Shown: positions 51,469 through 55,131 of the stretch, one piece after another
Layout of the letters: each line of letters starts with the position of its first letter
Position numbering within the stretch: position 1 is the stretch's first letter
IMG/VR virus record: IMGVR_UViG_3300042691_041392
Strand: one strand, 5' to 3'
DNA length: 64,000 bases
Origin: a virus
Made by a program: the position numbers and the translations under genes
The notes under the pieces: generated by a model
The model's input: only the letters and a program-made list of their open reading frames with translations
Told to the model about the DNA's origin: nothing
The model's database searches: none

Positions 51469-51825
51469 ATGAAGATGAATAATAGATACCAACGAAGACC
51501 ATATTATAATAAAAATGCGGCTATTGATAAAAAGAATAGAGTAATAACAATACTAATAATTGTTATTGGTGTTTTACTTTATTTTTTAAATTATCAAAGA
51601 GAAACTATTAATGGTTTAGAAGATGAAAACCTTTCTAATTTACAAGAAATTAGTGATAACACTTGTAGAATAAAAGAATTAAAAGAGGAGAATGATAGTT
51701 TAACAAAACCAGTTATTATTGTTCAACCAAAAAAAGAAGTTAAGTTCTTTAAACCAAAAACAAAAGAAAAATTAGATACAAGTACAACTAAAACTCCAAC
51801 AGTTATAGTTGATACTTTGAGATAA
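51469..51825 (+). CDS. Single-TM coiled-coil membrane protein
   Basis: VITILIIVIGVLLYFL followed by a coiled coil. Confidence 0.55.
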   Translation: MKMNNRYQRRPYYNKNAAIDKKNRVITILIIVIGVLLYFLNYQRETINGLEDENLSNLQEISDNTCRIKELKEENDSLTKPVIIVQPKKEVKFFKPKTKEKLDTSTTKTPTVIVDTLR

Positions 51826-52906
51826 ATTCTTCTTCAATTAAAGAATTTTTTATAGAATTAATAAATCTTTTCGTAATACAAAGATTATCAATAGATCCAA
51901 TTGTAATTGGATCTATTTTATTAACATATCCATAATAAACAGAAATTTTATGATCTATTGTAGGGTAAAATCTATGCGTATGTGTATATGAAGCATATCC
52001 TTTTATAAACTCATTATCATAGTAGTCAAAACCATCCCAATTTTCGTATAAAAACTTTTTATTTAATTTTGTTGTGTTTCTAACTACTTTTTTATAAGTA
52101 ACCCAATCACTTAATTCACTTTCTGGTATAATAAGTCCATTTAATTCCTTAGTTAATTTAACTTTACTTTTAATAGACTCAACCTTACTGACATTATCAA
52201 CACCATACTTCTCTAAACAAGTATTTTTTGTTTTATCGACCATCTCACTCTTTTTATTATTAAATATTGACTTCCAATAATCAGTCTTTGATAAATATTC
52301 ATTTCCATATTTTTCTTTAAAAGTACTCTTAATCTTATCTAAGATAATATCTTTATTATCAAATAATAATCTTTTAAACTCATCTGTTTTTGAATAAGAG
52401 TCCACTCCATATCTACTAATTAAAGTCTCCTTTGACTTATTACGAAATTCATCTGATGACATCCACTCTCGATTTTTAATACGCATTATATCAGTCTTAA
52501 AATAGGAATCAACACCATATCTTTCCATCATAGTCTTTTTACCTTTTTCGGATCCCTTTTTAATACCTTTCCATTTTTCACTTTCAGTTGATTTAAATTC
52601 ACTTGTCATCGAATATGATCTAACACCATACTTCTCTAAACATGTCTTTTCTTTAACATGATTTTTACAATTAAAGCAAGAATAATATCCTTTGTTATTC
52701 CTATTCATATTTATTAGATATTTTGAATATGATATTGAACTTTCGGATTTACATATATCACATATAGCAGTTACTTTGGTTTTAGATCCACTTGGTAAAT
52801 GTTCAACATCAACAATTATTTCATTATCAATTAAATATCCCAACTCAGAATAGTGAGATTTATTTCTAATATTTATTTTAACTAAAACTTTGTCTTCTTT
52901 AATCAT
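51803..52906 (-). mobile_element. Homing endonuclease with T(C/M)xE(K/R)YGV repeats and a C-terminal HNH-like domain
   Basis: About five xxYGV repeats; PTIDHKIS...NLCIT...NSIK. Confidence 0.7.
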
Positions 52907-52983: not shown

Positions 52984-54454
52984 ATGACTAGGGAAGAAAA
53001 AATTAAAGAACTAGAGTCATTAAAAAATAAAGCGAGCGAGTTGAAGAAAGAGGTAGACTACTACAACGCACTTCAACTCGCTCTTTTTTAACCCCCTCAA
53101 ATTTATTTTGAGGGGGTGATGACTAAAATTAGTTTTGAATGGATCTTACGGAGCATTCGCAACACCATACTTTATCTTGTTTAACAATCATGTGGCTGGT
53201 ACCATCACTGCACAAGGTAGAGATTTAACAAAGACAATGGATAGAGTTAATGAAGACTATTGGTATAATCAATGGCACTTAGACTTTGAACTACATAATA
53301 AATTAGGAATTAGAAATGTAACTCAAATACCTAATTCAGAACCGGTAAGTATTTATGCAGATACTGACTCATTATTTGTTTCTTTCTTACCAGCAATTGA
53401 ACACTCTGAATGGAAAAATATCTTTATTAATAAAAGTAATCTTGAAAGTATTGACAAAAAGTTTATTGTATTATCTAAAGAAGATGTCAATTTTAATAAC
53501 CCTAATTGTTTAGGATATGTAGATAAGTATAATGACTTTGAAAATTTATTATCAACCGATTATGAAATGATAATCATTGACGGACATTTTGCTAAAAATA
53601 GAGATTTGAATAAACTAATAAATTTTGGATCTCTTACTTGTGAACCCATTTGGAATTGGTCTAACGAATTGGATTATATACATGGTATTGATCATTTTAG
53701 ATATGCTGATTATTTCAAGACTTGTTTAGAAGAATACGCCGGATCTTTTGGAGTTGAAAATAAAGAAGACTTTGAGTTAGAACGAGTTTCAGAATCAATT
53801 ATATCAATCGCTAAAAAGAAATATATTCAACACGTTGTATTTGAAGATGGTATTCCTTATGATAGATTAACTTACTTATTCCCTAAAGGAGTTGAGTTAG
53901 TTAGATCATCAACACCTCTTTTTGCAAGAGAGAAAATTATCAACATCGTTAAATACTTATTTGAAAACTCAAATACATTTAACATAAAAGAGTTATTAAA
54001 ATTAGTTAAAGATTTAAGAAAAGAGTTTGAGTTAGCTGATATTGATGATATTGCAATGCAATCTTCTTGTTCTAACTATGATACTAAAGTTATTAATGAT
54101 AAAGCTTTACCATTAGAGTTTGTAACAGGAGCTCACTTTGCTGTTAAAGCATCAGCTCTTTACAACTACTTATTACACACTAATAAGCAATTTGCTGATA
54201 AGTATGAGATGATTAAGTCAGGTACTAAGATTAAGTATTACTATTGTAAGAATAAATCAAACGGTGATATCTTTGCTTATATTAGAGGTTCTTATCCAAT
54301 CGAGTTCGCTCCGCAAGTCGATTATACAACTCAATTTTATAAAGCAATTCTATCACCTATAAACTCAATTATTGAACCATTAGGAATGCCAGAGATTACA
54401 GAAAGATTATCAGTTGTATTAGACATATTTTCAGGATTTGGTATGAAATACTAA
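52984..54454 (+). CDS. Family-B DNA polymerase, C-terminal subunit of a split enzyme; coding sequence interrupted by a 40-nt gap (join 52984..53085 and 53126..54454)
   Basis: Joined reading gives ...YYNALQLALKLVLNGSYGAF (motif B), ITAQGR, YADTDS (motif C), AKKKY, KGVE; C-terminal LDIFSGF is clamp-binding-like. Confidence 0.88.
53034..53158 (+). other. Candidate programmed translational bypass element
   Basis: 13-bp stem 53034-46/53071-83; CTT TTT TAA; 11-bp hairpin 53091-101/53107-117; TGA TGA CTA AAA. Confidence 0.65.
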
Positions 54455-55131
54455 TCAGACCATCTATTACCCTTAATTAAATTTTCAGTCTTCCAAAGAG
54501 GCTGAAAATTTTTATAATGGTTTAACTCATATACTTCAGATTCACTTATAGCCCATGAAACCGGAGTTTTATGATCCAAATGCCACTCACCATGATTTTC
54601 CCAGGTCATACCATCTAAGAATTTACTTTGTATATAATCTTTAAATTCATCTATTGTACAACCTAATATAGATTCAGTTCTATACAACTTTTTATATCCC
54701 TTACTCACAATCGAACTACGTATTAAACCAGATATACTATCTTTTATCTTAAAAAGTATATCATTCTTCCTCTTTTCTGAAATATAATCTTTAGCATATT
54801 CTCTAATCTTATCTTTATTTTTCTCTCGCCACTTATAATTTAAATCTCTTCTTCTTTCATCATTATCAATGTGGTATTTTTTCTTATATTCCAATAAAGA
54901 ATCTCTATTTTTTTCGTAATGATTTTTAACACGTTCTTTTACTTTATCAATATTTTCTTCTCTATATTTTTTAACACCATCCTTTACCTTATCTTTATTA
55001 TTTTTATAATATTCTCTCTTATCTTCTAAAGAACATTCTTTACATCTACAACATAGACCATCCTTTGTTTTTTTATGTTTATGAAAATCTGATATTTCTT
55101 TTTCTTTTTTACATTTTGTACATTTTTTCAT
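54451..55131 (-). mobile_element. HNH homing endonuclease, paralogue of 30497..31273
   Basis: CTKC..CKEC; ILGC..DEFK; WHLDHKTP...LNHYKNFQPLW. Confidence 0.8.

Follow-up and report, generated by a model that had tools for sequence, protein, structure and literature searches.

A candidate programmed translational bypass in motif B of a split family-B DNA polymerase from a giant aquatic phage

The sequence analysed, here called the window, is a stretch of 64,000 nt of viral DNA (IMG/VR record IMGVR_UViG_3300042691_041392) in which the gene for the C-terminal subunit of a family-B DNA polymerase (PolB) is interrupted within motif B. ORF1 (52984..53085, + strand; 34 codons) has the same start and sequence as its gap-free homologues and encodes the descending fingers helix up to motif-B residue Leu34, whose codon, CUU (53083..53085, +), is the proposed take-off codon. 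It is followed by a 40-nt coding gap (53086..53125, +), recognised from 59 distinct homologous gaps of 36–49 nt and consisting of a UUU codon, an in-frame UAA (53089..53091, +) one codon past the take-off codon, a hairpin, an A-rich spacer and the proposed landing codon, CUA (Leu; 53123..53125, +). ORF2 (53126..54454, +; 442 codons) supplies the remainder of motif B, motif C (YADTDS), the thumb and a C-terminal tail, and matched family-B polymerases in Pfam (PF00136, E 1.6e-14) and PHROG (262 and 1918, DNA polymerase, E 3e-44 and 3e-43). Upstream, and divergently transcribed, lies a gene for a putative homing endonuclease of 367 aa (51803..52906, − strand).

All three frames are closed within the gap, by TAA 53089 in frame 0, TGA 53117 and 53120 in the +1 frame and TGA 53109 in the −1 frame, so that readthrough or a single frameshift is blocked; the ORF2 frame is open from CTA 53123 to 54454. 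Without a hop, ORF1 would yield a 35-aa peptide with Phe at its end. An earlier note on this DNA had proposed a ribosomal bypass between the two Leu codons, and the coordinates on which it was built (ATG 52984, CTT 53083–85, TTT, TAA 53089–91, TGA 53109/53117/53120, CTA 53123–25) were all correct when checked. Its claim that removal of the 40 nt yields motif B also held, as the restored motif equals that read straight through in 57 homologous loci with the same ATG position. The joined ORF1 and ORF2 product has 476 aa, most gap-free homologues having 472–485 aa.

In an AlphaFold model of the gap-free homologue L087, the ORF1 region forms a helix (3–38), although at low confidence (pLDDT 58; below 50 in the motif-B region). 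Foldseek with this poor model gave only weak matches to RB69/T4 gp43 (best E 0.012), which is consistent with a polymerase but no proof, and a PDB sequence search returned no match. In each of five near-complete relatives, a separate intact ORF about 100–170 kb away encodes the exonuclease and motif A and ends in the ascending fingers helix. The interrupted gene is the C-terminal half of this naturally split polymerase; the earlier note had recognised neither this nor that the upstream nuclease gene belongs to the element. The split is ancestral rather than made by the element; element-free phages have it too. A pseudogene accompanied by an intact second copy had also been raised; no such copy of the C-terminal half was found in two 98%-complete genomes of gap-bearing relatives, both of which carry intact N-terminal halves.

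The joined protein shares 71–73% identity with the products of genes in two records of uncultured phages (about 635 and 642 kb). Both are published Mahaphage genomes, and the window belongs to a giant aquatic phage. The Mahaphage clade, in which Al-Shayeb et al. 2020 placed their largest genomes, has predicted Bacteroidetes hosts (PMC7162821); by its relatives, the window phage would likewise have a Bacteroidota host. A Shine-Dalgarno (SD)-like sequence was present at none of 52 gene starts (long ORFs) in the window, where A/T runs precede the starts instead, and this fits the predicted host. No tRNA genes were found in the window.

Several other features of the gene and its surroundings were noted. 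About 80 extra residues after motif C (53390–53680) of the window protein are missing from a subgroup (L062, L065–L068, L133, L134 and L154) that has 354–356 codons after motif B compared to about 430. At motif C of L039, L048, L055, L061, L069 and L164, about 190 codons past motif B, there is an intein-like sequence that is broken by a stop and has a second ORF behind it, corresponding to either a fractured intein or an intein-nuclease cassette; L059 carries a continuous 641-aa form. A second nuclease-like gene (54451–55131; PHROG endonuclease VII-like, E 7e-22) is convergent on the polymerase 3′ end. A short start motif of the type MKYLKxFE recurs in many unrelated window ORFs (2691, 7533, 41998, 49192, 49709 and others). 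Ribosomal protein bS21 is encoded by four of the five near-complete relatives (G002–G005, the genomes of L035, L026, L066 and L007); a link between bS21 and the gap was dropped, as the protein is present in gap-free and gap-bearing genomes alike.

Homologous gaps and their boundary codons

Homologue searches yielded 72 viral and 80 metagenome loci. Of about 150 homologous loci, 57 were uninterrupted through motif B and 94 were interrupted. The 59 distinct single gaps fell into the three frame classes as 24, 19 and 16; being related by descent, their counts overstate the number of independent events. According to the take-off residue, the gaps were positioned after Ala33 (6), Leu34 (21), Val37 (7), Gly40 (2), Ser41 (1) or Tyr42 (22). 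These six positions differ by whole-codon shifts, and removal of the gap always restored the 12-residue motif with no residue gained or lost. One locus, L131 (729–900), has tandem cassettes, after Val37 (GTT/GTT) and Tyr42 (TAT/TAA), for which two hops five codons apart would be needed. The gaps of L015 (Ala type) and L068 (Leu type) have almost identical cores, displaced by one codon, indicating that the cassette has shifted register. L048 and L049/L050 carry one cassette with G-runs that differ by one base (42 compared to 41 nt), which may be a sequencing difference at a homopolymer or may point to frame-independence in a population. No second cassette was found in other window genes, nor in five related records searched with one strict pattern, which degenerate or shorter gaps would escape.

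Alignment of homologous polymerase genes had been suggested as a check on whether the insert and its stems are conserved or covary. Gaps were present in 94 loci, and their hairpin covaries; nearly the same gap recurred in the independently assembled L100 and L101, in addition to 58 other variants. The gap is therefore real and not an assembly error, and its design is conserved. Both flanks are under purifying selection, the pS/pN values between the window and L087 being 0.95/0.13 upstream and 0.40/0.02 downstream. ORF2 was either full length or broken by intein cassettes only. Given these findings and the lack of a second copy in near-complete relatives, a pseudogene or assembly artefact deserves almost no credence.

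The boundary codons were then compared across the 59 gaps. For non-Tyr types, the take-off codon was chosen as the last codon fitting the motif, a choice that favours a match, whereas the Tyr register is unambiguous; independent support for the choice comes from the distance between take-off codon and hairpin, which was constant at 5–7 nt in 59/59 gaps, Tyr gaps included. Take-off and landing codons were identical at position 1 in 49/59 gaps, at position 2 in 58/59 and at position 3 in 11/59, and the preceding base was identical in 13/59. Positions 1 and 2 both matched in 49/59 gaps compared to 2.9 expected from the spacer composition, and beyond the codon, on either side, identity was at background level. 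The last codon of the gap thus tracks the take-off codon, and identity limited to codon positions 1 and 2 has the look of a tRNA footprint rather than of a template switch.

The pairs found were CTT/CTA, GCT/GCA or GCT, GTT/GTA, GGT/GGT, TCT/TCA and TAT/TAC. The take-off codon ended in U in 56/59 gaps, the landing codon mostly in A or C, so the former would usually be a weak wobble codon and the latter mostly the Watson-Crick codon for the same anticodon. CUA was the landing codon in all 21 Leu-type gaps, though it accounts for 10% of window Leu codons. Landing coincided with the first matching dinucleotide past the hairpin in 48/49 gaps, the window included (first CU). The two codons were synonymous in 45/59 gaps and only near-cognate in 14 gaps (about a quarter), all of Tyr type; these 14 of the 22 Tyr-type gaps end on AAC, TAA, GAC, AAT, GAT, CAA, AAA or AGC.

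A stop was located directly past the take-off codon in 7/59 gaps, after one sense codon in 41/59 and 5–28 codons on in 11/59. With so few direct stops, a stop in the A site is not the trigger for take-off; the A site at the proposed take-off usually holds a readily decoded sense codon (UUU, GUU or GCU). The UUU before the stop and the match restricted to CUN, which the earlier note had listed as departures from T4 gene 60, are both present at the locus, but are no oddities within this family, where one intervening sense codon is the norm and CUU/CUA the commonest pair.

These data also bear on removal of the gap from the RNA, either as a protein-dependent micro-intron (hairpin nuclease and RNA ligase) or through template jumping by RNA polymerase. 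The constant 5-7 nt between the 5′ boundary and a covarying hairpin would suit such a process, Tyr-type gaps with unmatched ends would not have to undergo anticodon re-pairing, and RNA-repair ligases are encoded by huge phages (PMC7162821). However, the distance of the 3′ boundary from the hairpin varies (4–16 nt), codon identity rather than structure predicts where this boundary falls, and the ends match at codon positions 1 and 2 only, with identity at position 3 systematically avoided. In addition, 36–49 nt is far below the size of group I or II ribozymes, and no Rfam family came near its gathering score. Removal from the RNA is accordingly considered unlikely. A bypass from Leu CUU to Leu CUA, as first suggested, is strongly supported by the comparative evidence, its mechanism, outlined below, being read from sequence.

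RNA structures around the gap

The gap hairpin (53091..53117, +) has 11 bp and is clamped by C/G pairs. The structure described in the earlier note was borne out, with a folding energy of −19.9 kcal/mol (z −5.3) and none of 200 shuffles as stable. Its lack of a U-tract, which had been set against the window terminators, was confirmed too: an intrinsic terminator was not called at the hairpin on either strand, and A/T tracts flank most of the remaining strong perfect hairpins of the window but not this one. No other strong hairpin of the C-run/G-run kind occurs in the window. Across the 59 gaps, a C-run/G-run stem of 10–12 bp begins at the offset given above (6 nt in the window). With the anchor taken from each sequence's own fold, stem pairs 5–9 were paired in 96.6% of cases over the 59 gaps compared to 55.6% when arms were shuffled between sequences. 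The hairpin can be extended over the two codons past take-off, by 4.1 of 6 pairs in the Tyr type and 4.9 in the Val type compared to 2.7 and 3.4 after shuffling, the signal being weak in the Leu type.

A second structure, the 5′ stem-loop (53034..53083, +), has a 13-bp outer stem formed within synonymous codons, the 3′ arm running into the take-off codon. In the window it folds at −26.9 kcal/mol (z −8.9 relative to synonymous shuffles). On average, 20 Leu-type gaps had 11.7 of the 13 pairs and 47 gap-free alleles had 5.9, and compensatory changes were seen. Mean z values were −6.9 for Leu, −5.8 for Ala and −4.6 for Val types, and about −0.7 for gap-free alleles. The stem was present in the Ala, Leu and most Val types and was not significant in the Tyr type. 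Within the leader peptide, Ser12 (codon 53017–53019) was more frequent in gap-bearing alleles (36/57; p 8e-10 with no correction for kinship) than in gap-free ones, which mostly have Glu; this residue may be a nascent-peptide signal or may have hitch-hiked. Apart from Ser12, gap-bearing leaders match gap-free leaders.

The 3′ arm of the gap hairpin together with UGAU forms an SD-like stretch (53110..53120, +), its G-run ending 6 nt before the landing codon. The calculated duplex of the G-rich arm with the anti-SD was −16.8 kcal/mol in the window and −9.2 on average over the 59 gaps, while none of the 52 gene starts fell below −5. The G-run was 5–8 nt from the landing codon in 45/59 gaps, and the spacer is 75% A/T. 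The G-run could possibly act as an SD sequence, but it is also required for the stem. Bacteroidota ribosomes are described as sequestering their anti-SD (PMC7797042), a point against the SD step if the phage does infect Bacteroidota.

The same tract could be taken to mean that nothing is joined, and that the 35-aa peptide and an ORF2 product re-initiated at TTG 53135 or at a start past the G-run form a three-piece polymerase. A break at the fingertip already divides this polymerase, and T4-like gp43 is known to tolerate breaks of that kind (PMC3061061); a strong SD-like tract stands ahead of ORF2. This reading is nevertheless very improbable. An ATG, GTG or TTG in the landing frame past the last stop was present in only 15/59 gaps, and initiation at TTG 53135, an alternative that the earlier note had kept in view, would drop the invariant motif-B Lys. 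Six break points within one catalytic helix, with residues never gained or lost, and the duplicated codon would also go unexplained.

Nuclease gene, mobility and proposed mechanism

The product of the divergent gene at 51803–52906 contains DUF7487 repeats (Pfam, E 5e-17) and a C-terminal HNH-like IDH...N...N motif, also found in about 45 homologues, and matched PHROG homing endonuclease 3339 (E 8.5e-11). The 367-aa putative nuclease would be the mobiliser of the cassette. Of the gap-bearing loci, 39/59 have a divergent HNH-like gene immediately upstream, compared to 2/44 of the gap-free loci; these counts are not phylogenetically independent, and one of the two gap-free carriers lacks the nuclease motif. 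A third of gap-bearing loci lack this HNH-like nuclease family. In L043/L044/L046, L054, L136, L150 and L152, a GIY-YIG gene (LEM-3-like, NUMOD3) occupies the nuclease slot, in some of these with the gap and in L043 without it. When 50,697 phage records were searched by tblastn with the upstream nuclease as query, the matches were in Mahaphage-type genomes and in Lactococcus and Vibrio phages, with no T4-like MobA carrier among them.

The distribution of the gap is patchy. On a quick tree with SH-aLRT support only, gap-bearing and gap-free alleles were interleaved, and well-supported branches forced at least 17 gains or losses. L087, the sister of the window on this tree and its nearest gap-free relative, lacks the nuclease, the gap and the 5′ stem. 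L015 and L022 encode identical downstream proteins but carry different cassettes: their mismatches per 30 nt run 6, 9, 9, 10, 4, 1, 0, 0, so that the two differ strongly throughout the first 45 codons but little past motif B. This pattern marks a co-conversion tract that extends from the nuclease gene through the gap and ends at motif B. The gap thus occurs patchily together with the nuclease and a recoded 5′ tract, and a nuclease beside a conserved target gene, a co-conversion tract and a patchy distribution are the properties of a free-standing homing-endonuclease cassette.

Interleaved alleles, and the CT...CT repeat around the gap, would also be expected if the hairpin were miniature mobile DNA with a 2-bp repeat that is excised in part of the population to restore the gene. 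Gap-free alleles, however, have neither the 5′ stem nor the nuclease, and they diverge throughout the first 45 codons; they are therefore not excision products. Each genome searched had one copy of the hairpin cassette, and an essential gene would be unexpressible from the incoming genome. Excision at the DNA level is more improbable still than a three-piece polymerase.

The gap is very probably a programmed translational bypass within a free-standing homing-endonuclease cassette. The earlier note had assigned the gap a role in controlling an essential enzyme; the near-identical L087 does without it, and a selfish homing cassette fits better than a regulatory switch. In the proposed mechanism, the ribosome would translate 34 codons and meet the G/C-clamped hairpin at its mRNA entrance or A site, with peptidyl-tRNA-Leu on the weak wobble codon CUU, from which the anticodon would release. 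The 5′ stem could close only after the take-off codon had been freed, and would then prevent back-sliding and drive the ribosome forward. Having cleared the hairpin, the ribosome would re-pair at the first cognate codon, CUA (a full match to anticodon UAG), possibly aided by pairing of the G-rich arm with the anti-SD, and translation would restart at Lys35. Ribosomes that did not take off would add Phe and stop at UAA. As for purpose, the gap may disrupt the nuclease target within a motif too conserved to mutate, leaving the protein unchanged, as the gene 60 gap does against MobA.

Comparison with known systems

T4 gene 60 contains a 50-nt bypass and is associated with the MobA homing-endonuclease element (bioRxiv 10.1101/2022.08.31.505936; PMC7026636), in which the gap blocks nicking and which was called unique in the 2022 preprint (bioRxiv 10.1101/2022.08.31.505936). 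Here too, an essential replication gene is split, and the gap lies a few dozen codons into its second ORF, at invariant catalytic residues, and has wobble-matched take-off and landing codons, a nearby stop, a hairpin, a 5′ stem-loop, an SD-like triplet about 6 nt ahead of landing and an A-rich 3′ spacer free of premature landing sites. The upstream nuclease is HNH-type as in MobA, sometimes replaced by GIY-YIG or lost, and the spread is patchy in both. The tendency of Tyr- and Val-type hairpins to extend back over the two codons past take-off may bring these types closer to the T4 take-off stem, which has the take-off codon in its 5′ arm.

The differences are equally specific. The present gap lies in PolB motif B rather than the topoisomerase Toprim, is unrelated in sequence and usually has one sense codon before its stop. 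Its hairpin has no UUCG cap, and in the Leu and Ala types excludes the take-off codon. Three subtypes show strong conservation of the 5′ stem. Take-off positions number six, spread across ten codons and six amino acids, compared to two in MobA, and a double cassette occurs here. The MobA insertion splits the topoisomerase II large-subunit gene at Gly46/Asp45, while the split here is ancestral with the halves 100–170 kb apart. The predicted hosts are Bacteroidota, and the genes lack SD sequences. The cassette appears to work like gene 60/MobA but to be neither homologous to it nor a member, as the gene and hairpin differ, no stop directly follows take-off and no MobA match was found. The independence from gene 60 suggested in the earlier note is upheld by the unrelated gap sequence, the different gene and the nuclease matches, which include no T4-like MobA carrier.

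The byps of Magnusiomyces capitatus mitochondria (Lang et al. 2014) are summarised elsewhere as 27–55-nt inserts present in up to 81 copies in many genes (bioRxiv 10.1101/2022.08.31.505936; PMC7026636). As far as those summaries go, they share a hairpin, a sense codon past take-off, and take-off and landing codons that match fully or loosely, but are mitochondrial, spread like GC clusters and depend on unassigned codons, unlike the single nuclease-linked site per genome with common A-site codons found here. T4-like split gp43 (Petrov et al. 2006/2010) has the fingertip split and two independently translated subunits, with halves 2 bp to 3 kb apart compared to about 100–170 kb in the relatives studied here, and no bypass gap is described for gp43 genes in that account (PMC3061061).

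A search for reports of bypass in a phage polymerase found none in the literature covered, to which subscription journals did not belong. Candidate UUA-linked bypassing, deduced from sequence, has reportedly been proposed for Streptomyces phages as short hops at a rare codon with a regulatory role; we know of no homing cassette or long hairpin there. On balance, and with some reserve, we favour the view that the cassette is a portable, independently evolved and context-independent hop module, which would be driven by hairpin and spacing and would operate from at least six codons, with no stop or hungry codon at take-off, twice in a row, with near-cognate landing and on Bacteroidota-type ribosomes. 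Long-range bypass would then be a recurrent route for homing nucleases into catalytic motifs, beside introns and inteins.

Gap-bearing polymerase genes are currently annotated as N-truncated or as pseudogenes. Their variants, with matched or unmatched landing and with or without a stop or 5′ stem, make it possible to test which signals take-off requires, what determines the landing site and whether bypass serves as a shield against a homing nuclease. To our knowledge, published natural long-range bypass is confined to one homologous phage family (gene 60/MobA) and the yeast mitochondrial byps. The 59 variants and six take-off codons described here would provide a second, non-homologous and naturally mutagenised bypass series, located in an essential replicase of phages that are among the largest known.
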